Sequence record: SRR31156797_707 | Length of the DNA stretch: 64,000 nucleotides | Strand: one strand, 5' to 3' | Shown: positions 34,640 through 57,399 of the stretch, piece after piece | Layout of the letters: each line of letters begins with the position of its first letter | Position numbering within the stretch: the first letter of the stretch is position 1 | Made by a program: the position numbers and the translations under genes | Notes under the pieces: generated by a model | What the model saw: the letters and a program-made list of their open reading frames with translations, nothing else | What the model was told of the DNA's origin: nothing | Databases searched by the model: none

Positions 34640-35043
34640 GACCACAGTCGTGTGGATAATTTGTGTAAACATATTTATTTTATTAGGCGAAAACATCAGA
34701 AATGTGGAGAAAAGGACAACAACATCCTTAGAAGCTAAGAAGAATACAGTTTTCTGCAAATGGTTTCGATGTGGAAATAAACATATATAAATAAATACCA
34801 ATAACTTATAAACATCAACTGATAATGTTTATTCCTTATTCAAATAAGCATAACACAACGTGTAACCGGACACGTTTTTAGGATAAAATAACAGATAACA
34901 CATATACAGTAGTATCAAATCAATCTTTCTTCCTATAGGGCTTAACAAATGACAAGAATTTTATAAAAAAAATACAGTTTTTACATCATATAAACATCTA
35001 ATAATAAAGATGTTTCTTTTCAGTTGTCAGGTTTTATTAAACT

Positions 35044-35071
35044 CTGACATCGATTTGACAAATTTTTTACA
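35044..35071 (+). promoter_or_regulatory. Pho-box-like 11-bp direct repeats upstream of pstS
   Basis: CTGACA/TTGACA/TTTACA at 35044, 35055, 35066. Confidence 0.7.
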
Positions 35072-35131
35072 AATTTAGAGTAAACCTTTTCTAGCGGACA
35101 AGAAATTAAAACCTTTTTGGAGGATATGTTA

Positions 35132-36142: not shown

Positions 36143-36165
36143 GCAACTTGAACTAGACAAACAAT

Positions 36166-36200
36166 ACCGACCTGTATATAACATGCGGGTCGGTTTTTTT
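36166..36200 (+). terminator. Terminator-like hairpin between pstS and pstC
   Basis: ACCGACCTGTAT...ATGCGGGTCGGT followed by T run. Confidence 0.75.
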
Positions 36201-36222
36201 CGTAATATTTTTGGAGTGCTCA

Positions 36223-37464: not shown

Positions 37465-37473
37465 TGGTGCAAT

Positions 37474-38640: not shown

Positions 38641-38677
38641 ATAACAACATATTCAGCTTCTACGGAGTGATTAGATA

Positions 38678-39442
38678 ATGGATACTACATTAAAAATGAA
38701 ATCAGAGTCCCTCAACTTTTACTATGGGGATTTCCATGCACTTAAAGATATCAACCTCGTTTTCCCTGAAAGACATGTAACAGCGCTTATCGGTCCTTCA
38801 GGTTGTGGTAAATCAACTTACCTCAGATGTTTTAACAGAATGAACGACCTTATCAAAGACATCCGTGTTGAAGGCGGTATCTACCTTGATACCCAAGAGA
38901 TCCACGACCCAAAGCTCGATGTTGTTGAACTAAGAAGAAGAGTAGGAATGGTTTTCCAGAAACCGAACCCATTCCCAAAAACAATATATGAAAACATCGC
39001 TTATGCACCTCGCATCCACGGCCTTGTATCAAAAGGGAGCGAGATGGACGACCTCGTTGAGGACTCACTCCAGAAAGCTGGGCTCTGGGCAGAGGTCAAA
39101 GACAGACTGAAATCTCAGGCTACCGCACTTTCAGGTGGTCAGCAGCAGAGGCTCTGTATAGCACGTGCTCTTGCGATGGAGCCGGAAGTTCTCCTTATGG
39201 ACGAGCCTGCATCAGCCCTCGACCCTATCGCCACACAGAAGATAGAGGAGCTCATCTATGAGCTTAAAGAGAGGCTGACAGTTATCATCGTTACCCACAA
39301 CATGCAGCAGGCCGCAAGGGTCTCTGACTTCACAGCTTTCTTCTATATGGGAGAGCTTATTGAGGTGGGCGACACAAGCACAATATTTACAAATCCTACT
39401 GTTAAAAAGACAGAAGACTACATTACCGGACGTTTCGGTTAA
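38678..39442 (+). CDS. pstB: Phosphate ABC transporter ATPase
   Basis: [26 protein letters not shown]. Confidence 0.96.
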
Positions 39443-42640: not shown

Positions 42641-43375
42641 ATGAAAGCAATAATACTGACTTTATGTCTAGCCCTCGCAAGCTCAGCCTGTGCAGAGAGA
42701 TTAATGATATTCGCAGCGGCATCAACAACTAATGCCGTTAATGAAATAATAACTGAATTCAAAAAAGATACCGGAGTAAAGGTATCAGCGTCATACGCAT
42801 CGTCAGGCACACTAGCGAAGCAGATAGAAAAAAATGCACCTGCCAACATATTCCTCTCTGCCAACCCTAAATGGCTTAAATGGCTGGATGATAAAGGTAA
42901 ACTAGAAGATGGAACCAGCATTGACCTCCTTAAAAACAGACTGGCTATCATCTCAGCTAAAGATGTTAGGATCAAAGATATACCTACAAAAGAACTTCTC
43001 ACAAATGCACACCGTATAGCTGTGGCAGATCCGGCACACTCTCCTGCTGGTATGTATGCTAAATCAGCGATAGAGGCGCTCGGCATCTGGGATGTAGTAA
43101 GTAAAAAGCTGGCAAGAATGCAGACAGTCAGGGTAGCCCTAGCCATGGTAGAGCGAAGTGCCACCCCTATTGGCATTGTATATTCCAGTGACGCATCGTC
43201 ATCAAAAAATGTAAAAACTGTCAGACTTATAGACGAATCACTACACAAGCCAATCAAATACCCAATGGCTGTTATCAAAGGTAAAGCTACTGTCGAAGCG
43301 AAAGATTTCTATAACTATCTACAAGGCGATAAAGCATCAGCGATATTCAGAAAATACGGATTTCAGGTAAAATAA
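42641..43375 (+). CDS. modA: Molybdate ABC transporter binding protein
   Basis: FAAAS, ASSGTLAKQI, PAGMYA, IVYSSDA. Confidence 0.93.
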   Translation: MKAIILTLCLALASSACAERLMIFAAASTTNAVNEIITEFKKDTGVKVSASYASSGTLAKQIEKNAPANIFLSANPKWLKWLDDKGKLEDGTSIDLLKNRLAIISAKDVRIKDIPTKELLTNAHRIAVADPAHSPAGMYAKSAIEALGIWDVVSKKLARMQTVRVALAMVERSATPIGIVYSSDASSSKNVKTVRLIDESLHKPIKYPMAVIKGKATVEAKDFYNYLQGDKASAIFRKYGFQVK

Positions 43376-44071
43376 ATGCTCACACCTTACGAGTATGAAG
43401 CACTATTTCTAAGCCTCAAAATATCTCTATGGGCTGTTGCATCTGGACTCATACCGGGTGTGGCAGTGGCATATCTTCTCGCTCGTAAAAACTTCCCGGG
43501 AAAGCTCCTTCTGGACGGATTGATACACGTACCACTGGTCATCCCACCTGTTGTTACTGGTTATGTTCTTTTAATACTCTTTAACGACAATGGTATAGGC
43601 GGTAAATTCTTAAACGATCTGCTAGGGATAAGTATCTCTTTCTCATGGAAAGGTGCTGTTTTAGCATCAGTTGTAATGTCATTTCCACTTCTGGTTAGGA
43701 GCGTAAGGCTCTCTATAGAAGCTGTAGACAGAGGTCTGGAGGAAGCGTCAAGAACACTCGGTGCTGGTCGATTTAAAGTATTTTTCACCATAACCCTCCC
43801 CCTCGCTATACCCGGCGTTATAACAGGAACCGTTTTAGCTTTTGCAAGATGCCTCGGCGAGTTCGGTGCGACGATAACCTTTGTATCAAACATCCCCGGT
43901 GAAACGAACACCTTGCCTATAGCACTCTACACTCTTACTCAAACACCAGACACAGAAAGCGCCGCTATGCGCCTATGCCTCATCTCTATTGCTCTGGCAC
44001 TCTTTGCCATAGCAGGGTCAGAATATCTCAGCAGAAAGGCAAATACACGCCTTAGAGGTGAACATGCTTGA
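43376..44071 (+). CDS. modB: Molybdate ABC transporter permease
   Basis: PLVIPPVVTG, FARCLGEFGAT, NIPGET. Confidence 0.94.
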   Translation: MLTPYEYEALFLSLKISLWAVASGLIPGVAVAYLLARKNFPGKLLLDGLIHVPLVIPPVVTGYVLLILFNDNGIGGKFLNDLLGISISFSWKGAVLASVVMSFPLLVRSVRLSIEAVDRGLEEASRTLGAGRFKVFFTITLPLAIPGVITGTVLAFARCLGEFGATITFVSNIPGETNTLPIALYTLTQTPDTESAAMRLCLISIALALFAIAGSEYLSRKANTRLRGEHA

Positions 44072-45146
44072 GTTCAGAGCGATAAAAGAGCATCAGAATT
44101 TTAAACTTGATGTAAATCTGCGTTTCGATAGCGGTATGATCACTGTTTTATTCGGCAAATCCGGCTCAGGTAAAACTAGCATAATTAACATGGTAGCCGG
44201 CTTGCAGACACCTGATGTCGGCAGGATAGCTGTCGGTGATAACCTTCTGTTTGACAGCTATAAGAATTTAAACACGCCAACCCCGAAGAGGAACGCAGGC
44301 TATATCTTTCAAGACGGCAGGCTGTTCCCGCATATGTCTGTTGAGTCCAACCTTAAATACGGCATAAAGAAAAATGAGTTTTCACCTGACAGATTCAAAA
44401 AAATTACCGAGCTTTTAGGTATCGAAGACCTTCTGGACAGGCGACCGCATAAGCTCTCCGGCGGTGAGAAACAGAGGGTTGCCATAGGGCGGGCTCTACT
44501 GTCATCACCGGATTTCATGCTTATGGACGAACCACTCTCAGCTCTGGACAGCACCAGAAAGAAAGAACTTATTCCGTTCATCGGGCGCATGGTAGAAGAG
44601 TTCAACATGCCTGTTGTTTATGTCACTCACAGTCTTGAAGAGTTACTAGAGCTTGGCGATAATGTAGTGCTTATGCAAAACGGCAGGTGCATAGATTCTG
44701 GTAGTGTCGAGGAGATTGTATCTAAACCTGAAAATATGTCCGCCCTAGGTCTTACCGGACGTGTATCCATACTTAAAGCTGAGGCAATAGGCAGTCACGA
44801 CTCATCGGGCATCATAAAGCTCGAAGGTAAAAAACTGCTCATACCGACATCGAAATATCCAGCAGGAACCAAGCTCCGCATCACCCTCCGCTCGGAAGAT
44901 GTAACAATAAGCATCAGAAAACCTGAAGGACTCAGCGCCAGAAATATCATAAAAGGGCGAGTTGAAAAAATAGTCGAAACAGACGACGGTGCCGTAAGCC
45001 TCAAGATTGATATCGGTGTAAATGTATATGCCACAATAACTAACGAAGCCCTTACCGAGCTGGAAATCATGACTGGATCTGAAGTTTATATCATTCTGAA
45101 GACAGTCGCCCTATCAAGAAGAAGTACAGCTACACTCCGCCAATAA
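44064..45146 (+). CDS. modC: Molybdate ABC transporter ATPase with TOBE domain
   Basis: FGKSGSGKT, FQDGRLFPH, SARN TOBE motif. Confidence 0.93.
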   Translation: MLEFRAIKEHQNFKLDVNLRFDSGMITVLFGKSGSGKTSIINMVAGLQTPDVGRIAVGDNLLFDSYKNLNTPTPKRNAGYIFQDGRLFPHMSVESNLKYGIKKNEFSPDRFKKITELLGIEDLLDRRPHKLSGGEKQRVAIGRALLSSPDFMLMDEPLSALDSTRKKELIPFIGRMVEEFNMPVVYVTHSLEELLELGDNVVLMQNGRCIDSGSVEEIVSKPENMSALGLTGRVSILKAEAIGSHDSSGIIKLEGKKLLIPTSKYPAGTKLRITLRSEDVTISIRKPEGLSARNIIKGRVEKIVETDDGAVSLKIDIGVNVYATITNEALTELEIMTGSEVYIILKTVALSRRSTATLRQ

Positions 45147-45212: not shown

Positions 45213-45536
45213 ATGAACGAATACATTTTGGCATTTAAAAGATATTTCGACTTTAAAGGACGCTCGACACGAAGCGAATTCTGGTATTTCACAGCTTTCA
45301 ACCTTCTGCTGGTGCTTGCGATGTTAGGGCTTGATGTTATTCTTTTTGGTAATGCCGGAGTATTTTACACCATCGCAATACTAGCTACCATCATACCGAG
45401 CATAGCCGTATCCATTCGCAGACTGCACGATATAGGTAGAACCGGATGGTGGCTCCTTTTAAATCTCATACCGATACTTAGCTTGGTACTGATATTTTTC
45501 TATGTACAACCAACTAACCCTAACAACAAATATTAA
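45213..45536 (+). CDS. DUF805 family membrane protein
   Basis: FKGRSTRSEFW, RRLHDIGRTGWW. Confidence 0.9.
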   Translation: MNEYILAFKRYFDFKGRSTRSEFWYFTAFNLLLVLAMLGLDVILFGNAGVFYTIAILATIIPSIAVSIRRLHDIGRTGWWLLLNLIPILSLVLIFFYVQPTNPNNKY

Positions 45537-46285
45537 TTTAATAAATTTATAAGCTTTATGAACTCTTTATCGGTTAGCTTTACAGGCGGCATAGTTGACA
45601 GCCTATCTGTTTCACGTGGGTTTTTCAGCCATCTTTTCAAAGTGTCAGTCGTCCACTTTTCACCCTTTTTAAGCTTAATAGGTTGATAGTGTTTACTGAA
45701 CAAACCTGACAGATTCGGAGCAGTATCACCGCCTCCCATAGGACCGTTTAGCAATGTAAGTATCCTATGACATCCACCGCAATATTTATCAAATACGTTA
45801 TCACCAGAAGGCTTTACAAAAACAGTGTAAGGCTCACGCCTGCTTGCATCACTTTCAGATGTAGATAATAAATACCTCACAACGTTGGATAAGTCATTTT
45901 CTCTAAATCTGAAATCAGGCATGAAGTCTGTAGGCTTACTTATGGATTCTGAAAGTTGTTCAGCAGTTTTCTCAGCCGCTTTTGAACTAAGATTAGGTGC
46001 AAGACCGTTGCCACTGTCAGAAACAATGTGACACCTTCTGCATGAGGATGCATCGATAAGTTTTTCGCCTCTTTTAACACCTGCACTATTGGTCAAATAG
46101 TCGGAATACTCAGCACTGATCAAACCGTCATGCGCAATGTTAAGCCTGCTTGATTTATCGTTGCCACGGTGGCAGGTTATGCACTTGCCTGTGTCTTCAT
46201 AGTGAACCGTGTGGCAGGTTAAACACTTCTGCGCATAGGCTGACGAGGCGACAAAAAATATTATAAGTATAAGCCGAATGACCAA
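45533..46285 (-). CDS. Exported tetraheme cytochrome c
   Basis: Signal peptide; CLTCH, CITCH, CRRCH, CGGCH. Confidence 0.88.
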   Translation of the reverse strand: MVIRLILIIFFVASSAYAQKCLTCHTVHYEDTGKCITCHRGNDKSSRLNIAHDGLISAEYSDYLTNSAGVKRGEKLIDASSCRRCHIVSDSGNGLAPNLSSKAAEKTAEQLSESISKPTDFMPDFRFRENDLSNVVRYLLSTSESDASRREPYTVFVKPSGDNVFDKYCGGCHRILTLLNGPMGGGDTAPNLSGLFSKHYQPIKLKKGEKWTTDTLKRWLKNPRETDRLSTMPPVKLTDKEFIKLINLLN

Positions 46286-47271
46286 TCCGCACCTCTAAAA
46301 AACATAGCTATAATAGTAAGAACGACCACAGCTAATGTCAGCAATAATATCAACAACCATATAGGTTTATCATCACCACTAAAGTATTTAAACTGAGCTT
46401 CCCGCTTTGATATTGTCGGCAGGAAAAACATAAGAACATACAATAATACAACAAGGTTGAAATACCACGCACGCCAGCTCACCACTTCCTGAATCCAAAG
46501 GAGAAACCACGCACTTTTGACAGGGTTAGGTGGATTCGCCAGATCAGCAGGTATTGAAAGCGGAGCACCGAATGAAATCGATAACACACATGAAAACATG
46601 AACACTGATATCAATATAATTTTAATTCTTTTGTATAATTCACTTACATCTATTTTTTCTCCAACAGAAAGGAGTCCATCACGCCTTACAGAAAACATAT
46701 GAATAGACATTAGAAGCATCAGAGTAAAAGGAATTACCACTGTATGAAGAGCGAAATATCTGGATAAAGTCAGCCTGTTCCCTACTCCGTCAGGCGCTAA
46801 AATCCCCTCTATAACAGAACCAAAAGAGAGGGCACGAACAAGCTCTAGCCCTGTCTTTGCCGCCCAAAGGCTAAGCTGATCCATAGGAAGAAGATATCCG
46901 GCGTAAGCTTCGAAAACTATCAGCCCAAAAACCACAAGCCCTAGCCTGTAACTATATGTGCGAAACTTATATGAACCACCCAGCAACATGCGGAGCAGGT
47001 GTAAAGCTGAAGTAATCAGAAAAATATGTGAACACATGCGGTGAAATGCACGTATGAATTTTCCTCCAAAAACTTCTTCCTCTAGGTAAAGGACAGAATC
47101 ATATGCAAGATCAGGTGAAGGTGTATAGTAGAAAAGAAGCAGTAAACCACTAATAGTAAGGGATATAAACAAAACTACAAGCACAGCACCTAAGTAGAAT
47201 GTAGGCGAAAAGCTGACAGCAGATGAACTTACTTTTCTTGGGAAGAGGTGTTTAAAAAACTGCTCAAACAT
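46261..47271 (-). CDS. Cytochrome b of a Rieske/cyt b complex with fused subunit-IV-like C-terminus
   Basis: RAFH...ALH and ALH...SIH heme-ligand pairs, GYLLP; PNPVKSAWF at the PEWY position. Confidence 0.88.
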   Translation of the reverse strand: MFEQFFKHLFPRKVSSSAVSFSPTFYLGAVLVVLFISLTISGLLLLFYYTPSPDLAYDSVLYLEEEVFGGKFIRAFHRMCSHIFLITSALHLLRMLLGGSYKFRTYSYRLGLVVFGLIVFEAYAGYLLPMDQLSLWAAKTGLELVRALSFGSVIEGILAPDGVGNRLTLSRYFALHTVVIPFTLMLLMSIHMFSVRRDGLLSVGEKIDVSELYKRIKIILISVFMFSCVLSISFGAPLSIPADLANPPNPVKSAWFLLWIQEVVSWRAWYFNLVVLLYVLMFFLPTISKREAQFKYFSGDDKPIWLLILLLTLAVVVLTIIAMFFRGADWSFGLYL

Positions 47272-47680
47272 TCACTTTCTCCTCATAAACCTCTATGACA
47301 CCGTTGTCTACGCTAACTCTATACCTGTCGAGGGCTCTTTCAGCCGGCCCTGTGACAAGTGCACCATTAAGCTCGAATTTACTTCCGTGACAAGGACATG
47401 TGAAACCGCTATCTTTTATTTTTACGGTACACCCCAGATGCGTGCAGGCAAGTGACAAAGCCACAGGCTCACCAGATTCACGTATGAGTGCAACATTTTC
47501 ATCTGGGAAGATCAACGCCCCACCCTCAGGTATGTCATTGATGTTTCTTCTGATTATCGCACCTGTTTTACCAACTGGAAGTACAAGGTATCTGTATAAC
47601 AAGTATCCGGCAGGAATAGCCGCCAGAAACTTCAGAAAGCCTCTACGTGTTATTTCAGTTTTTCTATTATCTTCTGCCAT
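47264..47680 (-). CDS. Rieske 2Fe-2S protein
   Basis: Tat motif TRRGFLK, CTHLGC and CPCHGS. Confidence 0.94.
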   Translation of the reverse strand: MAEDNRKTEITRRGFLKFLAAIPAGYLLYRYLVLPVGKTGAIIRRNINDIPEGGALIFPDENVALIRESGEPVALSLACTHLGCTVKIKDSGFTCPCHGSKFELNGALVTGPAERALDRYRVSVDNGVIEVYEEKVNV

Positions 47681-48864
47681 CTATCTACCTGTTGTTTCTT
47701 ATATTTATCACTTTTATTCTGTATTGTCTTAATCTCATCACTACTTAAAAAACGTCCGTTGTAAACAGACTGCCCACTAGAGTTCCAAAAGGAATCAAGT
47801 TTTCCCCCTTCTCTTCCAAGATCATAAACATCATCTTGTTTTCTAAGGTTCATCAACCTCTTATCACTTTCGTGGCAAGACTCACAACCTCGAACCTCAC
47901 GCCTTATCGAGTGCGGCGAATAAGCACCCCACTCTTTTGCGACAAGCTCATTCTCAGCCTTAACCTCTCCATCCTCGAACAGTGTATATAGTGTTATAAA
48001 TGGTCTAATCGGGCTAATTTTACCTTTATCATCAACACCTAATATCGGTGCATCATACTCGTGCAATATCGCTGATCTAACATAGCTTTCACCAACAGGA
48101 TCAAGCATTTTCGCATACCCCTTATACTGCTTACGACTACCGTCAAAACGCATGTAATATGTGCCGTATTCTCCGTAACTCCAGCCAGCATGACAAGAAA
48201 CACACTTAACATTTTCGTGGTTATTATGCTCAAGGATACTCTTATCTATTTTATGGCAATCAACACACGACTTTGAAGCACTCACACCTTTCGCAAGGCT
48301 CTCCATACTGTGGCAATCACCGCAAGCCATACCAGCTTCGAAGTGAACATCAGGAAGCATCTTAAGGTAGTGTTTACCATCTATCTTCTTGCCACGTTGA
48401 TACTTTTTAGCCTGTGGTCTAGGCGCATATCCGGTGTAGTCCACACCTGTGGCGTGGTCGTTATGGCATTTCAGGCATGTCTCTGTAACTGGACGCTTTA
48501 TATCATGGCTTCCGTGACAATCCGAGCAGGAGCTCACGTGACAACCGGCACAATTCTTGTCAAAGAATTTCCTGTCATACTGATCAAACGCTCTATGGGC
48601 AAAGGCTCGCTCATCTGCACGAGTGTGCATCTTAGACATGCTCATGCTTTCATACGATTCATGACATTTAACGCAACCTACTGCTCCGGTAGCAAAATCT
48701 CCAGCCTTGGTGTAGTGTTTCTCAGTTTTTATGTGGCAGTCCGTACAGACCGCTCCGTAATGCTCTTTCACTTCCTGCCTATGACAGTCAGCGCACTCCT
48801 CAGCGTAAGAGAGGGCGGTGCACATCATCAGAAAGCACAGCATCATAATCGATTTTTTTACCAT
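47650..48864 (-). CDS. Exported decaheme cytochrome c
   Basis: 10 CxxCH motifs counted; signal-peptide-like N-terminus; start uncertain among ATGs 48864-48828. Confidence 0.88.
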   Translation of the reverse strand: MVKKSIMMLCFLMMCTALSYAEECADCHRQEVKEHYGAVCTDCHIKTEKHYTKAGDFATGAVGCVKCHESYESMSMSKMHTRADERAFAHRAFDQYDRKFFDKNCAGCHVSSCSDCHGSHDIKRPVTETCLKCHNDHATGVDYTGYAPRPQAKKYQRGKKIDGKHYLKMLPDVHFEAGMACGDCHSMESLAKGVSASKSCVDCHKIDKSILEHNNHENVKCVSCHAGWSYGEYGTYYMRFDGSRKQYKGYAKMLDPVGESYVRSAILHEYDAPILGVDDKGKISPIRPFITLYTLFEDGEVKAENELVAKEWGAYSPHSIRREVRGCESCHESDKRLMNLRKQDDVYDLGREGGKLDSFWNSSGQSVYNGRFLSSDEIKTIQNKSDKYKKQQVDRWQKIIEKLK

Positions 48865-50617
48865 AAATCCGTTCTTCACCCTTATCATGACAGGCGATGC
48901 AGAGGTTCGCTCGGAACATCCCCTTAACTTCATCTATGTTTAGCGCCCTGCTACCCTCTCGGACAACGGTGCTCATATCTTCTTTTCTATTGGCTTTTAT
49001 CTCTGACATAGCGTCCAGAGGCTTGTCGCACGTCTCGCACACTACCGCACTGGTAACGCTTAAACTATCTTTAATACCCACGAGCCCCTGCCCTAACCCT
49101 GCAAAATATGGATTAGCGTGGCACTCAGCACAACCCACAGCCTTCTTCGCTGTATTGTGTGAGTAGAACGGTGCAAACTTAAGCTTCTTCTCGCCTTTGT
49201 AGAGTGGAACCCTATTCTTATCAATAGCTTTGCCGTTATACTCAACGTTAATAAATGTCTGGCATCCCGGTGTCACAGGGGATATTTTACCCCGTTCATT
49301 TATCGCAAGCGGAAACGGAAAAAGTGTTCTCAAATCTTCCTTTTCACTAAAAAAACCTCTCGTCTCTTTCCCCTTAAGCGGATCAAACTGCTTTTTGCCC
49401 ATATCAACTGTGGTGTGGCAACCGTAGCACTGAGGTACAGCTTTCGAGTGACAGCTGTAGCACTCAAGCTTGTCGTGACCGTACACTTTATGTTCCGGTG
49501 TATTATCAATCACCTTAGCTACCAATCTTTTGCCATCTTTTTTAGTATATAAGGCTACCTCACCTGCTTCCATGAACACATTAGAATACATACGTCCTTT
49601 CTTGGTGAGAATCATCTTATCGCCAAATGAGGCCTTCTTCACATAGCTTCTCGACTCTCTGAGTGGTGCGTCACTCTCTGAGGTAATCTCTTTATATATA
49701 GGTAACTTACCGCTATCACCGTGACAGTCAGAACATGATATCTCTATCTGCTCATATAAGTTCTCATACACATAACCGTCACCCATAACATCTCTTGAGG
49801 TGTGGCAATCTACGCAATCCATTCCAGCTTTTGAGTGGATATCTGCGTGTATAGCCGTGAGGTTCCTCTTACCGCTTGAAAGCTTTTTAGGTTTACCATA
49901 CTCAGTCGGCACAAGCCCGGTCTCAAGGTCGGCATAGCCATTATATGTCAATGATATACGTCCGCTTCTGTTGTGGCATGTGTAGCACTGGTCGCCGTCG
50001 GGAACTTTCAGCATCTCGTGGCTAGAGGCGTAAGGTTTCTTACCAGCCATAGCCTTGTCATAACCCTTATACTTCAGGTCTTTATCATACTTAAAGTGAC
50101 ATGTGGCGCACCCTGTGGAGTGAGCCGTGTCGTACCCGCCCATCTTGCTGAATGAGACGTGGCAAACACCGCACAGCTTACGGTAGAGATCAGCCGGAAG
50201 CTCTTCCAGATCAACAATATCTGCGAGCCTTAACTCCTTGCCGTCTTTATCAAAAACCGTTGCACCTTTGACAGATGCGAGAACCTTTTCGTGGCTCCCC
50301 CATGCGTAAAAGGTGTTTTTGATCATTCCGGTATTCGTATACATTATGTTTGAGGTCATACGTTTATGCTGAAATTCGTGGCACTTTATGCAGGTTTTAT
50401 CCCACACGGAAGGGTCAGACGGGTTCTTACCACCGAGCATATCTTTGTGAGAAATATCTTTATTATCAGATGTGTTGTCACCGCCATGGCATTCAACACA
50501 GGCGAAATCGTGTGATTCACTAGGAGCTTTGATACCTTCATGGCAGGTGACACAGGTAGATGCGAACAGTAGAAATGGAATAAAAATCAGTGCCAGCACT
50601 GCGTATGTCTTTGTCAT
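48800..50617 (-). CDS. Exported dodecaheme cytochrome c
   Basis: 12 CxxCH motifs counted plus one CETCD; N-terminal signal/anchor. Confidence 0.9.
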   Translation of the reverse strand: MTKTYAVLALIFIPFLLFASTCVTCHEGIKAPSESHDFACVECHGGDNTSDNKDISHKDMLGGKNPSDPSVWDKTCIKCHEFQHKRMTSNIMYTNTGMIKNTFYAWGSHEKVLASVKGATVFDKDGKELRLADIVDLEELPADLYRKLCGVCHVSFSKMGGYDTAHSTGCATCHFKYDKDLKYKGYDKAMAGKKPYASSHEMLKVPDGDQCYTCHNRSGRISLTYNGYADLETGLVPTEYGKPKKLSSGKRNLTAIHADIHSKAGMDCVDCHTSRDVMGDGYVYENLYEQIEISCSDCHGDSGKLPIYKEITSESDAPLRESRSYVKKASFGDKMILTKKGRMYSNVFMEAGEVALYTKKDGKRLVAKVIDNTPEHKVYGHDKLECYSCHSKAVPQCYGCHTTVDMGKKQFDPLKGKETRGFFSEKEDLRTLFPFPLAINERGKISPVTPGCQTFINVEYNGKAIDKNRVPLYKGEKKLKFAPFYSHNTAKKAVGCAECHANPYFAGLGQGLVGIKDSLSVTSAVVCETCDKPLDAMSEIKANRKEDMSTVVREGSRALNIDEVKGMFRANLCIACHDKGEERIYGKKIDYDAVLSDDVHRPLLR

Positions 50618-50637
50618 ACGTGATTATATATTAAATC

Positions 50638-50657
50638 GGGGCGGAATCAACCGCCCC
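50638..50657 (-). other. GC-rich intercistronic stem-loop
   Basis: GGGGCGG-N6-CCGCCCC between TPR gene and dodecaheme gene. Confidence 0.65.
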
Positions 50658-50680
50658 ATAATGTTAAAAGCAAAAATTAC

Positions 50681-51052
50681 TTAACAACCTTCGAAGGAAG
50701 GTGCGCCACCATCATCGCCAAAAAGGTCGTCTTCCTCTTCAGCAGGAGCGTTACTAGGAGCGGACGGCTCTGCTGAAAAATTAAAACCTGACATATCGAC
50801 CTCGCTATCACCAGAGGTGACCCTAACCAGGAGGTCATACTTACCCCATGCAGCGTTGCTCCACGGGTCGTATTTTACGGCTCTTTGGTAGTAATTCTTT
50901 GCAACTTCAAAGTTTTTCTCACTCATCGCCTTGTCACCAAGCGCTATCATCTGCCTGCACTGCTCTTTGCTTATATTAACAGCGTGCGCCGCAGGGACAG
51001 ATATCACAGCCATCATCGCAACAAGTACAATTGATACTATATATTTCTTCAT
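50681..51052 (-). CDS. Small exported TPR-like protein with Pro/acidic tail ending in FEGC
   Basis: Signal peptide (AHA), TPR-like helix pair (AKNYYQRAVKYDP), low-complexity tail, terminal Cys before TAA. Confidence 0.8.
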   Translation of the reverse strand: MKKYIVSIVLVAMMAVISVPAAHAVNISKEQCRQMIALGDKAMSEKNFEVAKNYYQRAVKYDPWSNAAWGKYDLLVRVTSGDSEVDMSGFNFSAEPSAPSNAPAEEEDDLFGDDGGAPSFEGC

Positions 51053-51057
51053 TTTTA

Positions 51058-51945
51058 TTACCTCACGATATATTGAGCAAATTTGTCAGTATAAACACCT
51101 GCATGTATGATCAGGTAACGAAGGAAGTAACCGCCAACAAGCACCATAGCCTCTAGGGTTACAACTGTTTTAACGGAAAGATGCATCTTCCCTGCTTCTT
51201 CCATTCCGAAAAGTATCACCGGAATTATTAGCCCGATCAACATAAGGAAAAACCAGAACATAAAAGAGTATGGACCAGCCAGAAGTGATACCGCAGCATA
51301 TTTCATCTCCGGCACACCCTGAAGAGCTATGAGCATCATCCCGATAAGGAGAAGGATCTCAAGGACTACAAGGTAAAGGTGACTAGTCTCGATTGGCTTT
51401 ATGTCGTCTTTGCTCTTTAGCACTGTGTGCTTAACTATCACCGCACCGGAAATACCTGTGGATGAAGCGGAAATTATGAAAAGTATAGGGAGTGCTGTCT
51501 GGTGCCAGAAAGGTATAGCCTTAAGAACACCGAGGAGAACAGCTGTGTATCCAGCGGTGAGGATACCTGTTATCACAAGTGACCAGCAGAGTGCTTTATG
51601 CATCTTAGCTTTCATATAGCCGAAGTTAACAGCAGCGTATAGAGTCGCCAGCATCACAAATAGAGTAAGGATTCCTGTACCCCATGATATAGCTGATGTC
51701 GGATTTACGAAGAGGAAAATGAGGAGCCAAGGCTTCCACATCCCCTGCCCGAGGTCGATATACAGAAAAAATATACCGAGACTTACCAGAGGCATTCCGA
51801 TTAAACTCGCAGCTTTTATAAAGGAGATATATCTCTCCCTGTCGTACATATCAGCAACCGCAGCCACAACAACCGCACCAGCACCGACACCGGCGAGGAA
51901 AAGGTAAACCGCGATATACCATTCAAAGGCTTCTTGATGTATCAT
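51058..51945 (-). CDS. NrfD/PsrC-type quinol-interacting membrane anchor
   Basis: WYIAVYLFLAG, IDLG, TSAISWG, LRYLIIHAG; about 8 TM. Confidence 0.9.
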   Translation of the reverse strand: MIHQEAFEWYIAVYLFLAGVGAGAVVVAAVADMYDRERYISFIKAASLIGMPLVSLGIFFLYIDLGQGMWKPWLLIFLFVNPTSAISWGTGILTLFVMLATLYAAVNFGYMKAKMHKALCWSLVITGILTAGYTAVLLGVLKAIPFWHQTALPILFIISASSTGISGAVIVKHTVLKSKDDIKPIETSHLYLVVLEILLLIGMMLIALQGVPEMKYAAVSLLAGPYSFMFWFFLMLIGLIIPVILFGMEEAGKMHLSVKTVVTLEAMVLVGGYFLRYLIIHAGVYTDKFAQYIVR

Positions 51946-51954
51946 CTCTTCCCC

Positions 51955-52518
51955 CTACGCTTGTATATAGTAAATATTTGGCTCTGTGCCGAGGTCTTCG
52001 CGAAGTTTCCAGACTTTAAGCCTGTTATTCTTAGCCTCTTTCAGAACCATAGAGATTTCGCTTGATGGGTCGTTTATGTCACCGAAGACACGAACACTAC
52101 CCGGGCATGTTGTAGCACATGCAGGCTCAAGCCCTTCCGCCAGCCTAGGCAGGCAGAATGTACATTTTTCAGCTACACCGACCTCATGATTAAAGAATCT
52201 CGCATCATAAGGACATGACGGGATACAGTATTTACATCCTACACATCTTGAGCGGTTGACGAAAACAATACCGTCATCCCTCTTATGGCTAGCTTTTGTA
52301 GGGCATACTGTCACACAAGGTGCATCGTCACAGTGGTTACACTGGCTAGGGAGAAAATCCATACGAAGCTTACCGTGAAGCTCCTCTTTCATCCCCTGAT
52401 CGATATGTGTGCGAAAGTCGTCAGCAGGAACCTGCCACTCAGCCTTGCATGCTACCATACAGGCTTTGCAGTCCACACATCTGTCTATGATATATGCCAT
52501 TGCATACTTTTTATTCAT
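51955..52518 (-). CDS. Four-cluster 4Fe-4S subunit (PsrB/NrfC-like)
   Basis: CVDCKACMVAC, CNHCDDAPCVTVCP, CVGCKYCIPSCP, KCTFC...CATTCP. Confidence 0.93.
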   Translation of the reverse strand: MNKKYAMAYIIDRCVDCKACMVACKAEWQVPADDFRTHIDQGMKEELHGKLRMDFLPSQCNHCDDAPCVTVCPTKASHKRDDGIVFVNRSRCVGCKYCIPSCPYDARFFNHEVGVAEKCTFCLPRLAEGLEPACATTCPGSVRVFGDINDPSSEISMVLKEAKNNRLKVWKLREDLGTEPNIYYIQA

Positions 52519-52535
52519 TATCTCTTACTCCCCGC

Positions 52536-54725
52536 TCACGCTTTTATGACTTTGACAAAGCCGTTCTGAAGCCCGACTCCACCGCTGATAGGGTCTGTGT
52601 CGTTTGAACAGAAGTCACTTGTTCTGGCGCCTTTGCCCCTCATTACAGTCATTAACGGGCTTTCGTGTCCGAATCCCTGTGGGGTAAAAATGGCCTCTGG
52701 ATGGATGTAATCCACAACCTTAACCACAAGCTCACCGCTGGTCTTCTTCCCGTTAGTCACGCGAACCTTATCACCATCTTCGATACCGAGAGCTTCCGCA
52801 CGGCTGGTATTAATCCAGACAGGAACCTCGTAATCGTGAAGTGCAAGCAGCCATCTGTTGTTCTGAGTTCTTGCGTGAGTATGGTAACTGGTGCGACCAA
52901 AGAGAAATCTGAACTGGTCATCATCTGGTTTCGGAGACTCCGTATATGTAGGCAGTGCATCGAAACCTAGGTCACGAAGCTTTGAGCTTGCAAGCTCTAC
53001 CTTGCCGGAAGGAGTATAAAAACGTGGTCTCTTACCGGTTGCCCTCGGCGTAGGTTCTCCAACTGCTTTCACAAAACAGCCGTTAGCTTTCATGTATTCA
53101 TCATCTGTTCCAGCCGCCTGGAAAAGGAGATAGTTAAAATCCTCTATTGAGGAAAATTCATTCTCATAGCCCATAGCTTTAGATATTCTCTCAGCCATCT
53201 CCCAGCCGCCGATAGTGTCATGAACAGGCTCTATGGCAGGCTCACGATACTGAACATAGCCGGATTTACGGCTTGTAACTATAGCCGGATCATACCTTTC
53301 CAGATAAGTTGATTCAGGGAGAATTACGTCTGAGTAGTAAGCTGTATCTGTCATATAAATATCACAGGTAACGATGAGGTCACTCTTCTCAACAGCTCTG
53401 TAGACTATATCTGCATCCGCCTGATGATGGAAAAGATTTGTTCCATAAACAAACAGCGCCTTCATAGCGTGTGGTTCCTGATTAGCTATCGCCTCTATCT
53501 GCTTATTAGCGAGACCGAGATTTTTCGGAGCCAGAGGGAAAAGTGTTCCCGCTCCGTCTGCTCTGTCGTGAGTTGCGTGGTGATCAAACTCAACCATATG
53601 TGGTTTCTTAACCTTCAGCTTAACAGGGGAATATATACCGCCTGGCATATCCCAGTTTCCGAAAAGTGCATTAAGAACAGCTATGGCTCTGACGAACTGT
53701 ACGTCGTTGCCGTATCTTGAAAGCCTGCGCCCCGGGTGGATATAACAATGAGGTGCGGCCTTTGCGAGAGACTTACAGGCTCTTACGATTGCTGCTTCGT
53801 CGAGGCCTGTCTCTTCACTCGTCCAATTTAAGGAGTATTCGGTTACATGCTCTTTTAGCTCGTCAAAGCCTTCCGTATAGCTGTTTACAAATTCCGCATC
53901 GAAAAGGTTGTTTTCTATGACATAGTTTATCATTCCCAAAAGGAGTGCTGTGTCTGTGCCAGGGCGAATCATCATAAACTGGCTCGCTTTCGCCGCAGTT
54001 TTAGAGAAACGCACGTCTACATAGATGACCTCTGCGCCCTTCGAAAGTCCGTTGGTAAACTCCTGAAGCTCACCAACATGAAGCGCTTCGGCAATGTTAC
54101 GCCCGAGCATCATCATACATTTTGAATTATCAGAATCGACAGGCTCTTTACCGCCGACAGGCTTACCATATGTTGTCGCCCATGCGATCTCTCTGCTTCC
54201 TGTGCATTGCGAAAATGCAGGTATAGCTATGTTTGGAGTGCCGATAATCTCCATAAGGTTCATAAATGAGTGCTCACCTGAGCCGTGAGCAAAGAGCGAG
54301 AAGGATTCCGGACCGTGCTGATCTCTGATAGCTATGGACTTTTCAGCTATATACTGTATAACCTCGTCCCATGTTGCTTTTCGAAATTTACCTTCGCCTC
54401 TCTTCCCTGTTCTGATCATAGGATACTTGACCCTGTCAGGATCATAGACCTGATAAACGCCTGAGTTACCCTTAGCGCAAAGCTTGCCGAAGTTACTCGG
54501 GCAGTGAGGCTGACCTTCGAGTTTAATCACCTTACCGTTTACTGATTTTGCTGTGAGCCCGCATTTCCAGAAACACATCTCACACCAGTTCTGAGTATAA
54601 CTTTCGCCTCTCGGCTTGCTCTTCTCTTCGTTAGCTGTGACTTTCAGTGCCGGAAGTCCGAGGATAGCAGCACCAGCCGCAGCAGTCTGAAGAAAGCGCC
54701 TACGGGATAATTTTGTCTTTATCAT
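52536..54725 (-). CDS. Tat-exported Mo-bisPGD oxidoreductase, PsrA/PhsA/SrrA-like catalytic subunit
   Basis: SRRRFLQ Tat motif, CEMCFWKC...LCAKG FS0 cluster, putative Mo-ligand Cys in FSQC, RTQNN; start 54725 behind GAGGGA. Confidence 0.88.
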   Translation of the reverse strand: MIKTKLSRRRFLQTAAAGAAILGLPALKVTANEEKSKPRGESYTQNWCEMCFWKCGLTAKSVNGKVIKLEGQPHCPSNFGKLCAKGNSGVYQVYDPDRVKYPMIRTGKRGEGKFRKATWDEVIQYIAEKSIAIRDQHGPESFSLFAHGSGEHSFMNLMEIIGTPNIAIPAFSQCTGSREIAWATTYGKPVGGKEPVDSDNSKCMMMLGRNIAEALHVGELQEFTNGLSKGAEVIYVDVRFSKTAAKASQFMMIRPGTDTALLLGMINYVIENNLFDAEFVNSYTEGFDELKEHVTEYSLNWTSEETGLDEAAIVRACKSLAKAAPHCYIHPGRRLSRYGNDVQFVRAIAVLNALFGNWDMPGGIYSPVKLKVKKPHMVEFDHHATHDRADGAGTLFPLAPKNLGLANKQIEAIANQEPHAMKALFVYGTNLFHHQADADIVYRAVEKSDLIVTCDIYMTDTAYYSDVILPESTYLERYDPAIVTSRKSGYVQYREPAIEPVHDTIGGWEMAERISKAMGYENEFSSIEDFNYLLFQAAGTDDEYMKANGCFVKAVGEPTPRATGKRPRFYTPSGKVELASSKLRDLGFDALPTYTESPKPDDDQFRFLFGRTSYHTHARTQNNRWLLALHDYEVPVWINTSRAEALGIEDGDKVRVTNGKKTSGELVVKVVDYIHPEAIFTPQGFGHESPLMTVMRGKGARTSDFCSNDTDPISGGVGLQNGFVKVIKA

Positions 54726-54823
54726 TATTCCCTCGTAATACATTAAATTAATTCAAGGACGTAATCAGCAAGACCGAAAACGCCCTTATGACTTTAACCA
54801 ATCTAAGCAATAATTTTTGCATT

Positions 54824-54853
54824 TGTCAACAGTCTAGTGAGTTTTTTATCACT
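54824..54853 (-). promoter_or_regulatory. TTGACA -35 plus AGTGA-N8-TCACT palindrome upstream of the oxidoreductase operon
   Basis: Palindrome 54836-54853; minus-strand TTGACA 54829-54824, 6 bp gap. Confidence 0.65.
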
Positions 54854-54956
54854 TATAAATTATCCACTATATACATATATTCAGATTTTAGTATTTGTTT
54901 ATTTTATGACAATTTAATGGTTTACAAATGATTGTGTCATACGCTATATAAGCAAT

Positions 54957-55313
54957 ATGGCGTTAAGAGACTGTAACGAAGAAGAAATAAACAATCTGCT
55001 TGAATTTTTTAAAGCAATGGCTAACCCTATGCGCTTTACAATCGCACGTCTCATATGCATGGAACCGAGATATAGCCACGAGATAGAAGATATTTTCGAT
55101 TGTGAAAGATCTAATATCACCAAACACTTAAACGTTTTAAGAAAAGCAAACGTAATAAAATCTTATAAGGAAGGACGTAAAACTCTTTACGTTATGCAAG
55201 GGGAGTATGTTAAATCACTCCTTAAGTGCATAGATCAGGAAAACTACCAAGAGATATTAAAAGCAGAAGATAAAAATAAACTACATTACAAGGTAGATAT
55301 AGACATTTCATAG
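54957..55313 (+). CDS. ArsR/SmtB family transcriptional regulator with four Cys
   Basis: FKAMANPMR, SNITKHLNVLR, KEGRKTLY. Confidence 0.88.
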   Translation: MALRDCNEEEINNLLEFFKAMANPMRFTIARLICMEPRYSHEIEDIFDCERSNITKHLNVLRKANVIKSYKEGRKTLYVMQGEYVKSLLKCIDQENYQEILKAEDKNKLHYKVDIDIS

Positions 55314-55458
55314 AAACCTGTTTTAAGCATATGCCCTTTATAATTGCTCAGCTAAACTTTCTTTTTAACAAAGCATCAACTTTAATACATTCATCTTATC
55401 GCATATTAATGTTTTAATAGTGTTTTCATATTTCAAAACATAAATCTCACTGTTAACC

Positions 55459-55511
55459 AGTGAACTATTTATCACTTTTATATTGACACCTTGATATCTT
55501 TAAAATATTAT
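55459..55511 (+). promoter_or_regulatory. AGTGA-N8-TCACT palindrome plus sigma70 promoter of the rhodanese gene
   Basis: Palindrome 55459-55476; TTGACA(55483)-17-TATTAT(55506). Confidence 0.7.
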
Positions 55512-55542
55512 CGCAATAGAACTACAAACGGAGGTCGTAAGA

Positions 55543-56037
55543 ATGAAAAGACTTACTGCATTTATTTTTGCTATCGTATTTACAATGAGCTTATCAGCTT
55601 TCGCTGCTGCACCAACAGAGCCTGCATCACTTGCTAAAAAGCGTGACGCACTCCTCGCTGCTGCGGTTAAAGACGTAAAACAAATCACTGTTAAGGATCT
55701 GCTCGGCATGATGAAGAATAAAGAGAAGTTCGTACTTCTCGACATCAGAGAAGCTGCTGAGACAGGCTTTACTATCCCTTACAAAAACCTTAAGAAAATC
55801 CCTAGAGGTCTTGTAGAGTGGCTCGTTGGCAAGCAGATTAAACTTGACGAAAAAGTTGTTGTATACTGCAAGTCCGGTGCTCGTGGTGCTTTCACAACTA
55901 AGCGCCTTAACGAACTTGGTTACGCAAATGCTGTTAACCTTGAAGGCGGAATCGTTGCATGGCTCGAGGGCGGCTACCCTATGAAGACTTACATCGGTAA
56001 CATCAAACCTACTGGTTACAAATTTAAGAAAAAGTAA
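55543..56037 (+). CDS. Exported single-domain rhodanese, Sud-like sulfur transferase
   Basis: Signal peptide, LLDIRE, IPRGLVE, active-site YCKSGAR, LEGGIVAW. Confidence 0.88.
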   Translation: MKRLTAFIFAIVFTMSLSAFAAAPTEPASLAKKRDALLAAAVKDVKQITVKDLLGMMKNKEKFVLLDIREAAETGFTIPYKNLKKIPRGLVEWLVGKQIKLDEKVVVYCKSGARGAFTTKRLNELGYANAVNLEGGIVAWLEGGYPMKTYIGNIKPTGYKFKKK

Positions 56038-56061
56038 TTTACATACTGAACGTATAACAGA

Positions 56062-56093
56062 TAAGGGCACTCATAACGGGTGCCCTTTTTTTT
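56062..56093 (+). terminator. Rho-independent terminator
   Basis: AAGGGCAC...GTGCCCTT followed by T run. Confidence 0.85.
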
Positions 56094-56109
56094 GCGTAAA
56101 TATAAACGG

Positions 56110-56856
56110 CTAGTCTCTGCCCCTCAGCTTAGAGAGAAGGTTAAGTATCTCTATATAAAGCCAGATAAGTGTCACGAGAAGTCCAAAAGCTGAGTACCAC
56201 TCCATATATTTCGGAGCACCTGCCGCCGCACCCTGCTCTATGAAATCAAAATCAAGAACAAGATTCAGCGCCGCAATCACTACAACAAACAGGCTAAAAC
56301 CTATACCTATCAGTCCTGATTCGTGGATGTAGGGGATGTTCATCCCGAAAAAACCCAAAACAAAGCTTATAAGGTAAATAACAAATATACCGCCTGTGGC
56401 AGCAGCGACGCCAAGCTTGAAATTCTCAGTGGCTCTTATCATACGTGATTTATAAGCGATCAACAGTGAAAAGAAAACTCCCATCGTGAGACCTACTGCC
56501 TGCATAACAATACCCGGAAACTTCATCTCCATCAGAAGCGACAGCGCCCCCAGGAGCACACCTTCCACAAGTGCATAAATAGGTGCAGTTAAAGGGGATG
56601 CCTTCTTAAAAAATATCGTAATAAGGGCAATAACAAGCCCGCCTATCGCAAGCGGAATCAACATCCCTATTATCTGCCTGAAACTCTCCTCAGAGCTCAT
56701 TGCTTCATGCCAGGCATACCCAGCACCGCATACAAGAAGAATCAAAAGCACCAGCGCTTTATTCGCCGCCCCCTGAATGGTCATAACAGTTGCTGATGTG
56801 CCCCTTACTTTCGTAAATGTACTGGCACTCAGCGCAGGATTACTACTCTTTAGCAT
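56110..56856 (-). CDS. Bax inhibitor-1-like/YccA family membrane protein
   Basis: SSNPAL, LVLDFDFIE, EWYSAFGLLVTLIWLYIEIL. Confidence 0.88.
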   Translation of the reverse strand: MLKSSNPALSASTFTKVRGTSATVMTIQGAANKALVLLILLVCGAGYAWHEAMSSEESFRQIIGMLIPLAIGGLVIALITIFFKKASPLTAPIYALVEGVLLGALSLLMEMKFPGIVMQAVGLTMGVFFSLLIAYKSRMIRATENFKLGVAAATGGIFVIYLISFVLGFFGMNIPYIHESGLIGIGFSLFVVVIAALNLVLDFDFIEQGAAAGAPKYMEWYSAFGLLVTLIWLYIEILNLLSKLRGRD

Positions 56857-57018
56857 CGTTCACCTCTAGATAGATTATTAGCCAACATAGCATGTTCATA
56901 ATAACATATTTGTTAATACTGTTAAAATTAATTATAAAATCTAAATATTCAACATTTTATATGTTGACATAGTTAAATAACAGCACATCTTTATTTAAAA
57001 GACCAAGGAGGTCTCATT

Positions 57019-57399
57019 ATGAAAAAGCTGCTCATACCTTTTTATATATTTTTATTTGTAGTAGCCGCAGGATTTCAGGCTCAGGCTATGTCATATAAAG
57101 ATATAACCCCGCAAGAAGCGAAAAAGCTTATGGCCATGCATAGTGATCTTGTAATCATTGATGTTTCACCATATTTTGACCGAGGACACATCCCCGGTGC
57201 GATAAATATCAAAGTGAGCGATCTGGAAGACAAGATTCCTACGCTGGATAAATACAAACCATACCTTATCTACTGCCACGCTGACGGACCTGCCATCAGA
57301 GGCTCTAAAATGCTTGTAGATGCAGGATTTAAGATGGTTTACAGACTTATAGGTAACTATGGAGGCTGGGTTGCCGCAGGCTATGACACTGAGATGTAA
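57019..57399 (+). CDS. Exported single-domain rhodanese-like protein
   Basis: Signal peptide, IIDVS, GHIPGA, YCHADGP active loop; AAGGAGG RBS. Confidence 0.85.
   Translation: MKKLLIPFYIFLFVVAAGFQAQAMSYKDITPQEAKKLMAMHSDLVIIDVSPYFDRGHIPGAINIKVSDLEDKIPTLDKYKPYLIYCHADGPAIRGSKMLVDAGFKMVYRLIGNYGGWVAAGYDTEM

Follow-up and report, generated by a model that had tools for sequence, protein, structure and literature searches.

A polysulfide reductase-type molybdoenzyme beside an ExtMNOPQS (Cbc6) module: a candidate molybdenum-enzyme version of the ext sulfur-respiration cluster

The DNA considered here, a stretch of 64,000 nucleotides from sequence record SRR31156797_707 (hereafter the window), carries a cluster of nine co-oriented open reading frames (ORFs) on the minus strand (45533-54743), in which the genes of a polysulfide reductase (Psr)-type molybdoenzyme stand directly beside those of a multihaem cytochrome/Rieske/cytochrome b module of the kind found in the ext genes of Geobacter. 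The coordinates agree with those given in an earlier note made from the sequence, whose set of nine genes and their subunit types is confirmed by an ORF check and by matches to Pfam and NCBIfam profiles. A motif count likewise returns the 26 CxxCH motifs reported there, of which 12 lie at 48800-50617, 10 at 47650-48933 and 4 at 45533-46285, with none in the remaining six genes. From the extS end upward, the junctions measure -25, -8, -31, -134, +63, +5, +9 and +17 nt, such that neighbouring genes overlap or are 5-17 nt apart, with the sole exception of the 63 nt between the gene for a small exported protein and extM. The 134-nt overlap of the extN gene is probably an artefact of the longest-ORF start at 48933; since the match to the ExtN family covers the product from residue 30 onward and a signal-peptide-like N-terminus is found at Met24, the likely start is at 48864.

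The Psr-type half comprises a Mo-bisPGD catalytic subunit of Psr/Phs type with an RRRF twin-arginine translocation (Tat) motif (52536..54743, minus strand; PF00384, PF01568, PF04879), a PsrB-like electron-transfer subunit with four [4Fe-4S] clusters (51955..52518, minus strand; PF13247, E 4.7e-29; 16 Cys), and a quinone-interacting, haem-free membrane anchor of the NrfD/PsrC type (51058..51945, minus strand; PF03916, E 1.4e-35; no CxxCH). Given that relatives of the catalytic subunit are 729-730 aa long, its translation probably starts at Met7 (54725). Among NCBIfam models, this subunit scores 458 bits with PhsA, 255 with Fdh-alpha, 247 with DmsA, 133 with ArrA and 55 with TtrA, and among chains in the PDB it matches Thermus thermophilus PsrA (2vpw) at 510 bits over residues 13-735 (E 8.5e-152), followed by a next match at 183 bits and ArrA at 127. 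By both the profile and the structure scores, the Mo subunit belongs in the Psr/Phs lineage, which is where it had been placed at first reading. Features of that lineage are present, namely the Tat motif, the N-terminal [4Fe-4S] motif (PF04879, E 9.4e-13; PF10518 at 19 bits is under its cut-off of 22.7) and a Cys ligand for Mo: Cys180 aligns to residue 173 of the 2vpw chain, which we take to be the Mo-ligating Cys, and it is invariant, together with the flanking QC-GSR residues, across 26 relatives of the subunit. The four-cluster iron-sulfur (FeS) subunit and the haem-free NrfD anchor are encoded alongside; the top NCBIfam matches of the former are TtrB and DsrO, each under its own cut-off, and the latter has no sequence match among PDB chains. 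In database searches, the nearest relative of the Mo subunit shares 82% of its residues; the nearest with a name comes from a Denitrovibrio sp. metagenome-assembled genome (MAG), at 81%, and those of D. acetiphilus, Seleniivibrio, Limisalsivibrio, Deferribacter and Flexistipes are 53-63% identical.

The other half begins with ExtM, a 12-haem c-type cytochrome (48800..50617, minus strand; NF040943, 809.4 bits, cut-off 800), and ExtN, a 10-haem c-type cytochrome (47650..48864, minus strand; NF040967, 419 bits, cut-off 200), and ends with ExtS, a 4-haem cytochrome with two class-I cytochrome c domains (45533..46285, minus strand; NF040971, 274 bits, cut-off 100; PF13442). At the ExtO position, between ExtN and cytochrome b, is a Rieske [2Fe-2S] protein (47264..47680, minus strand; PF00355, E 8.6e-13) with a Tat-like RRGF motif (TIGR01409, 17.8 bits, cut-off 16.7) and the boxes CTHLGC and CPCHGSKF. 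The next gene (46261..47271, minus strand; PF00033, E 2.1e-27) does encode a member of the cytochrome b family, as the earlier note had it, but its 336-aa product is to be described as a fusion of a cytochrome b6-like and a subunit-IV-like protein, that is, of ExtP and ExtQ. The ExtP model covers residues 1-201 at 164 bits (cut-off 290) and the ExtQ model residues 212-332 at 101 bits (cut-off 150), both under their cut-offs and both the top-scoring families for the respective halves. The haem-ligand pairs H-x13-H and H-x14-H are present, and at the position of the Qo motif in the ExtQ-like part (46261-46660) the canonical PEWY is replaced by (S/A)AWF followed by a conserved QE; the acid-less (S/A)AWF is found in all 14 ExtQ-type relatives compared. 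With ExtM, ExtN and ExtS exceeding their NCBIfam cut-offs and the gene order M-N-O-P-Q-S kept, the likeness to Geobacter Cbc6/ext drawn in the earlier note proves well founded, and by profile matches and gene order this half is a genuine ExtMNO(PQ)S (Cbc6) module.

Several further features of these cytochromes were seen. The NCBIfam model NF040968, labelled as the iron-sulfur subunit ExtO, matches the 10-haem ExtN (47650-48933) at 419.5 bits and does not match the Rieske protein (47264-47680), a behaviour also seen in another locus (L041:14392-17621); the model seems to have been built on ExtN sequences or to be mislabelled, and because it matches the 10-haem protein it cannot be used for Rieske identity. 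Two Cys of ExtM, C452 and C527, do not belong to haem motifs and are invariant across 90 homologues and the window protein; they may be joined in a disulfide, or one may contribute to His/Cys haem ligation of the kind known from sulfur-converting cytochromes. The same set shares eight His that are invariant or nearly so, as well as four conserved Met, of which three are invariant and one is present in 90% of rows. Many ExtM homologues are about 960-1020 aa long and appear to be ExtM-ExtN fusions, carrying names of Desulfobacterales and 'Deltaproteobacteria' MAGs.

The two halves occur together well beyond the window. A metagenome scan was made with an alignment of 26 clade members as the query, and in the best 80 loci of 147 confirmed relatives the partner genes were scored by tblastn with the window proteins. 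The scan patterns derive from one clade (clade A below), and many loci of one gene order (layout B below) come from a single sample series, so that rows are not independent. Of the 80 loci, 32 contain a Rieske and/or an ExtM-like gene, 23 of them having the two together. Where at least 3 kb downstream of the Mo gene was available, 25 of 37 loci carry a Rieske and/or ExtM-like gene, the pairing being present in 5/5 loci at a Mo-subunit identity of at least 45%, in 13/17 at 40-44% and in 7/15 below 40%. Three gene orders are seen: layout A, that of the window (Mo-FeS-NrfD-small protein-ExtM-ExtN-Rieske-cytochrome b-ExtS), layout B (NrfD-Mo-FeS-small protein-Rieske-cytochrome b-12-haem-10-haem) and layout C (Mo-FeS-NrfD-ExtM-ExtN-Rieske-cytochrome b-ExtS). 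A quick tree of the 80 Mo subunits, which comprises only relatives from the searches, gives 99-100% support to each of two clades: clade A, whose 13 rows bear Deferribacterota names, and clade B, with 31 rows named from Sulfurospirillum, 'Epsilon' and Hippea. The module-linked C loci fall within one 12-row subclade. The names attached to ExtM homologues in a database search are those of the same taxa as the Mo-subunit relatives. For the named Deferribacterota, co-occurrence is seen as Mo and ExtM genes in one genome or on contigs of equal length (285015, 40942, 22660 and 14765 bp). Thus, the co-occurrence that the earlier note left to a synteny search is real, and the impression of a one-off arrangement gives way to that of a widespread partnership.

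Two side observations belong to these loci. In clade-B loci, the cytochrome b is shorter and has no ExtQ-like match. In L004 and L006, whose Mo subunits are about 79% identical to that of the window, several cluster genes are split by frame breaks; because the two records are broken at different places, assembly quality is more likely the cause than decay.

The connection with the Geobacter genes goes beyond the shared module. In locus L007, whose Mo subunit sits beside that of Flexistipes, the Mo gene is immediately preceded by genes of the ExtH, ExtI and ExtJ families, with 538 bits for ExtI (cut-off 150) and scores just under the cut-offs for ExtH (176.7, cut-off 200) and ExtJ (47, cut-off 52.5). 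Near the Mo gene of L053, ExtH scores above its cut-off (337.6) and ExtJ below (47.6), whereas in L039 the reverse is seen (ExtH 183.7, ExtJ 57.9); among these three loci, the ExtI model was run on L007. ExtJ is also above its cut-off in L083 (55.9), and L055 has ORFs with the same Gly-Cys ends at the ExtH and ExtJ positions. In G. sulfurreducens, extKL occupies the place at which the Mo gene stands after extH-extI-extJ in these relatives (PMC5877670), and ExtKL, renamed MccSep, has been reported as a periplasmic 5-haem selenoprotein that acts as a polysulfide reductase and is required for elemental sulfur (S0) respiration (PMC13510729). The main text of that report (Sci Adv, August 2026) makes no mention of ExtM-S or of gene clusters. 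The contrast originally drawn, in which the Geobacter partner was ExtKL and a porin and not a molybdoenzyme, therefore dissolves, and the 'selenite/tellurite' label then attached to ext has been overtaken by the polysulfide reductase function of ExtKL in S0 respiration (PMC13510729). A selenite/tellurite operon at face value was accordingly rejected as an identity for the cluster, the label being older than the MccSep work.

An ExtM-like match (E at most 1e-30) is present in 57 of 301 sampled Desulfobacterota genomes, and nine exceed the model cut-off. Six of these nine loci have extH, extI, an ExtJ-like ORF and a 5-haem ORF ending in TGA upstream of extM, with no Psr gene in the stretch examined, while two others (L115 and L119) have Psr-like genes 8-10 kb upstream without the 5-haem ORF; in L116, also among the nine, no 5-haem TGA-ending ORF was found. 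Such an ORF was found neither in the window nor in any of the 22 Psr-linked loci checked, a set that does not include L039. On a tree of ExtM, a single clade of 14 rows, supported at 99%, contains an intermixture of Psr-linked and MccSep-linked modules. The window branches with L007 (96%), far from clade B. It follows from this intermixing that the catalytic partner has been exchanged repeatedly, which argues that Psr and MccSep are functionally equivalent partners of the ext module.

A further shared trait is a class of exported proteins that end in Gly-Cys, in which these loci are enriched. Between the NrfD gene and extM, the window encodes a small exported protein with a tetratricopeptide repeat (TPR)-like helical hairpin (a weak TPR_2 match), an acidic low-complexity tail and a C-terminal Gly-Cys (50681..51052, minus strand). 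Its homologues occupy the same position in relatives and form a family with a signal peptide, a conserved hairpin and a variable tail, in which 20 of the 21 members aligned end in Gly-Cys. In a count over the 4056 ORFs of at least 50 aa in the window, L001 and L004-L083, this ending occurs in 60, some of them spurious; judged by eye, they are mostly exported proteins adjoining Mo genes. ExtH and ExtJ of Geobacter-type loci likewise end in Gly-Cys. By analogy with SoxY and Sud, we infer that such proteins might carry sulfane sulfur on a swinging arm, in which case they could represent a new class of periplasmic sulfur carriers. In clade-C loci, another small exported protein, rich in Lys and also ending in Gly-Cys, follows NrfD (L048:13954-14169, L054:6969-7184, L060:5203-5475, L065:13804-14004, L115:5515-5730, L119:8175-8381), and a third family of about 107 aa with a KKTAGC end is encoded upstream of the Mo gene.

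The genes flanking the cluster had been listed as a divergent ArsR, two rhodaneses and modABC, and profile matches bear this out. The ArsR/SmtB-family regulator (54957..55313, plus strand; NF033788, 59 bits, cut-off 55) has counterparts, 55-81% identical, at the corresponding place in L004, L005 and L006. It contains four Cys (6, 34, 49 and 91) and scores 30 bits with the BigR model (cut-off 155); C34 and C91 lie roughly at what we take to be the Cys positions of the persulfide-sensing SqrR and BigR. Both rhodaneses are single-domain proteins with a signal-peptide-like N-terminus and one Cys (55543..56037, plus strand, PF00581, E 2e-11; 57019..57399, plus strand, PF00581, E 2.9e-14), and the first is kept beside ArsR in L004 and L006. 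While the presence of the pair stands, the description of this flank needs the correction that a BaxI-like gene (56110-56856, minus strand) lies between them. On the other side, a molybdate ABC transporter, modABC (42641..45146, plus strand; ModA 263 bits, cut-off 253; ModB 339.5, cut-off 262; ModC 365.7, cut-off 285), may supply the cofactor. Farther away, the window holds a large phosphorus-scavenging block (21827-39442) with PhnW, PhnX, phnCDE, the C-P lyase genes phnG/H/K/L/M/N, a PbfA-like ammonia-lyase and pstSCAB, and a dense series of sensor kinases and response regulators (1575-20473), which also contains a bacteriohemerythrin and includes three proteins that match the 'NosR family' c-di-GMP phosphodiesterase model in its receiver and HD-GYP-like parts.

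The reading of the cluster that we favour, at moderate confidence, is that of a molybdenum-enzyme version of the ext sulfur-respiration cluster, in what would be a Denitrovibrio-like host within the Deferribacterota. S0 and sulfide would give polysulfide, the source of the sulfane sulfur that the two exported rhodaneses take up in the periplasm and that the small exported protein, with its flexible Gly-Cys tail, could also hold. The sulfane sulfur would then pass to the Tat-exported Psr-type Mo subunit, whose Cys-ligated Mo would cleave the S-S bond and release sulfide. Menaquinol would be the electron source, with the NrfD anchor and then the four-cluster FeS subunit passing the electrons on to the Mo subunit, as in Thermus PsrABC. 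From the same quinone pool, ExtMNO(PQ)S, as a complex of the Rieske/cytochrome b6 type, would connect to a periplasmic haem network of 4-, 10- and 12-haem cytochromes, serving as a dedicated partner of the reductase in the role that it would have beside MccSep (ExtKL) in Geobacter. What the enzyme reduces, the carrier function of the Cys-tailed protein and the physical coupling of the two halves are all inferred. A Psr operon with an exported triple-rhodanese lipoprotein has been described as up-regulated in S0 disproportionation (PMC12142623).

A number of observations weigh against this reading, some concerning the identity and coupling of the halves and others the substrate. The Mo subunit is under the PhsA equivalog cut-off (458 versus 694 bits) and is thus, by its profile score, a relative of PhsA and not a PhsA equivalog. 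No ExtH, ExtI porin or ExtJ match was obtained among 60 proteins scanned in the 64-kb window. The sole real gap in the cluster (50618-50680) holds a GC-rich hairpin of 8 pairs, 7 of them G-C (50637..50658, minus strand), which resembles a terminator or an attenuator and is overlapped by a promoter-like TTGATT-16-TATAAT; because of these elements, 'one operon' is not established. The same hairpin, there followed by a T-run, is conserved in L004 and L006, and the Psr and ext halves may therefore be separate transcripts, or the ext half may be attenuated or separately started. Moreover, PsrABC stands without the module in 12 of the 37 informative loci (L012, L014, L016, L017, L052, L058, L061, L062, L066, L070, L076 and L079), and L001, the sole locus found when genome contigs were searched with ExtM as a single protein, has the ext module without Psr. 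Since both kinds of loci exist, neither half needs the other.

The hairpin with its promoter-like site and the occurrence of each half alone are what one would expect if the halves were merely independent neighbours, with PsrABC working alone via NrfD, as it does in the self-sufficient enzymes of Thermus and Wolinella, and the ext module acting as a separate quinol:cytochrome c oxidoreductase, kept adjacent only by shared regulation or island structure. Yet the adjacency is found again in separate Mo clades and under three gene orders, a polysulfide reductase stays next to the ext module despite the change between Psr and MccSep, and some junctions in relatives are tight: the small-protein gene overlaps extM in L043, and gaps of 9 and 25 nt precede the Rieske gene in L007 and L020. 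On balance, mere neighbourhood appears improbable, and of all the alternatives considered here it is given the least weight.

The other difficulties concern the substrate and the energetics of the favoured sulfur-respiring cluster. Denitrovibrio is reported not to reduce S0 despite having psr clusters, D. acetiphilus being tabled as negative (PMC6896113), and therefore the substrate in the Denitrovibrio lineage may differ. The Rieske box CPCHGSKF carries, as far as we have assigned its positions correctly, the S..F signature, which Kao and Hunte place in the mid-to-high potential class (PMC4122944). By its signature, the Rieske protein would then be of mid-to-high potential. Polysulfide is a low-potential acceptor, and under standard conditions the step from menaquinol to polysulfide is already uphill; a textbook forward Q-cycle onto polysulfide is therefore not feasible, and with free polysulfide as the acceptor a forward cycle is implausible on thermodynamic grounds. 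A 2026 review describes the role of Cbc6 as unknown (PMC13591261), and elsewhere Cbc6 has been implicated in electron transfer from cytochrome c to quinol (PMC10553843).

One way to remove the thermodynamic problem is to run the chain oxidatively, with the Psr-like enzyme reversed as a sulfide or polysulfide dehydrogenase that reduces menaquinone via NrfD and a Q-cycle in the Rieske/cytochrome b complex oxidising the quinol, whose electrons would leave over the 26 haems for high-potential acceptors, for example nitrate, nitrite, Fe(III) or O2. Such a chain, which we regard as unlikely, would explain why two quinone modules are adjacent, one for the donor:quinone and the other for the quinol:cytochrome step, and would suit a Rieske protein of mid or high potential, but the Qo-motif position is without the acidic residue of canonical quinol-oxidising complexes, and the clade-B Mo subunits include one from Hippea, a genus known for obligate S0 reducers without high-potential acceptors. 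The literature points both ways. An operon of rhodanese, molybdopterin oxidoreductase and Psr-subunit genes is highly expressed in Desulfurivibrio alkaliphilus during sulfide oxidation with nitrate (PMC5516251), the idea that extra Psr copies are sulfide dehydrogenases in some Epsilonproteobacteria is cited in PMC6896113, and the Denitrovibrio relatives are nitrate reducers reportedly without S0 reduction (PMC6896113). On the other hand, the same module adjoins MccSep in Geobacter, where the direction in S0 respiration is reductive (PMC13510729), and D. autotrophicus is unable to oxidise sulfide (PMC6896113).

Alternatively, the direction would stay reductive and the acceptor would be a chalcogen compound of higher potential, such as selenite/tellurite, tetrathionate or thiosulfate, in which case the Rieske/cytochrome b route would be electrogenic and NrfD mainly an anchor. 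A Q-cycle would be feasible only with acceptors of this kind, and Seleniivibrio, which respires selenate and arsenate, holds two paralogues of the Mo subunit and an ExtM. Published findings could be read in the same sense: the selenite reductase SrrA lies within the PsrA/PhsA/SrrA lineage (PMC7331816), MccSep supports selenite-dependent oxidation of methyl viologen (PMC13510729), loss of ExtI has been implicated in selenite/tellurite reduction (PMC5877670), and a Psr homologue has been reported to participate when Shewanella respires tetrathionate (PMC12949373). Nevertheless, the pairing is common in hydrothermal Campylobacterota-like and Hippea-like loci, for which sulfur is the obvious substrate, no selenium-specific genes were noticed in the 64-kb window, and the genetics of MccSep indicate S0. 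A higher-potential chalcogen is rated below the oxidative chain.

For the sulfur-respiring cluster, the place of the Rieske module has to be judged separately. Our tentative preference, held at somewhat less than even confidence, is that the module serves the reductase as an input or as a means of energy coupling, which might be non-canonical or bifurcating; an output route from quinol to other acceptors is distinctly less probable. Placed in order, a non-canonical input or coupling comes first, followed by the oxidative chain, the higher-potential chalcogen and the independent neighbours. A bolder version, speculative and rather doubtful as it stands, would give ExtMNOPQS energy coupling as its dedicated task beside periplasmic polysulfide reductases whose catalytic designs are unrelated, the Mo-bisPGD enzyme PsrABC and the haem/selenocysteine enzyme MccSep, with a Gly-Cys sulfur relay. 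Unlike any textbook bc complex, it would then serve a low-potential acceptor, for example by sending the low-potential Qo electron outwards or by a mode other than the Q-cycle at the acid-less (S/A)AWF site. If this were true, sulfur respiration would have its own 'complex III'.

The interest of the cluster lies in the fact that energy conservation from the reduction of elemental sulfur or polysulfide is poorly understood. A module that stands beside either Psr or MccSep joins two previously separate literatures, and it poses the bioenergetic puzzle of a Rieske complex paired with a low-potential acceptor. It also yields the concrete hypothesis that Cbc6 belongs to sulfur respiration, which can be tested in Geobacter, Sulfurospirillum, Deferribacter and Denitrovibrio, all cultured and partly tractable. 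A full-text search of the literature returned no description of Psr joined to ExtMNOPQS, in keeping with the statement in the earlier note that no characterised complex with this make-up was known to its author. Genome papers on Deferribacter, in the parts available, list psrABC clusters without their neighbours, and the Sulfurimonas 'psrA1B1CDE' cited in PMC10045233, whose original source was not found, may cover extra psr-linked genes.

Among known systems, alternative complex III and QrcABCD resemble the window in combining a Mo-enzyme-like subunit with FeS, NrfD and multihaem cytochrome c subunits, the last being pentahaem or hexahaem, but they are without a Rieske/cytochrome b part, and their Mo-like subunit is not known to carry the cofactor. 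An identity with them was rejected, given that the FeS motif and the Mo-ligand Cys are intact, QrcB scores 149 bits against 440, and a Rieske/cytochrome b complex is present. PsrABC (T. thermophilus, 2VPW-2VPZ; Wolinella succinogenes) and PhsABC have the same types of A, B and C subunits, with Tat export, the N-terminal FeS motif and the Cys ligand of Mo. W. succinogenes PsrABC works with the Sud sulfur transferase, which the exported rhodaneses of the window recall. Unlike the window, these systems come without a Rieske/cytochrome b complex or multihaem cytochromes, and they differ from it in that its A subunit is under the PhsA cut-off and its NrfD subunit is without a match to solved chains. 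The selenite reductase SrrABCDEF has accessory genes with rhodanese domains. Found in the Gram-positive Bacillus selenitireducens and compared here by description, it belongs to the same PsrA/PhsA/SrrA lineage (PMC7331816), and, in contrast to the window, it is without a Rieske/cytochrome b complex or multihaem cytochromes.

The closest comparison is with extHIJKLMNOPQS of Geobacter sulfurreducens (GSU2940-2930; ExtKL, or MccSep, plus Cbc6), which has the same genes for 12-haem and 10-haem cytochromes, Rieske protein, cytochrome b, membrane protein and 4-haem cytochrome in the same order. It also shares with the window periplasmic rhodanese(s), a small exported protein ending in Gly-Cys and a neighbouring catalytic gene of the polysulfide reductase type. 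The differences are that the catalytic module of the window is a three-subunit molybdoenzyme with NrfD instead of a soluble 5-haem selenoprotein, that ExtP and ExtQ are fused, that neither the ExtI porin nor the ExtH lipoprotein was found in the window, and that its Cys-tailed protein, which does not match ExtJ, belongs to the TPR-like family. Taken together, the window is one member of a widespread, undescribed variant assembled from known modules.

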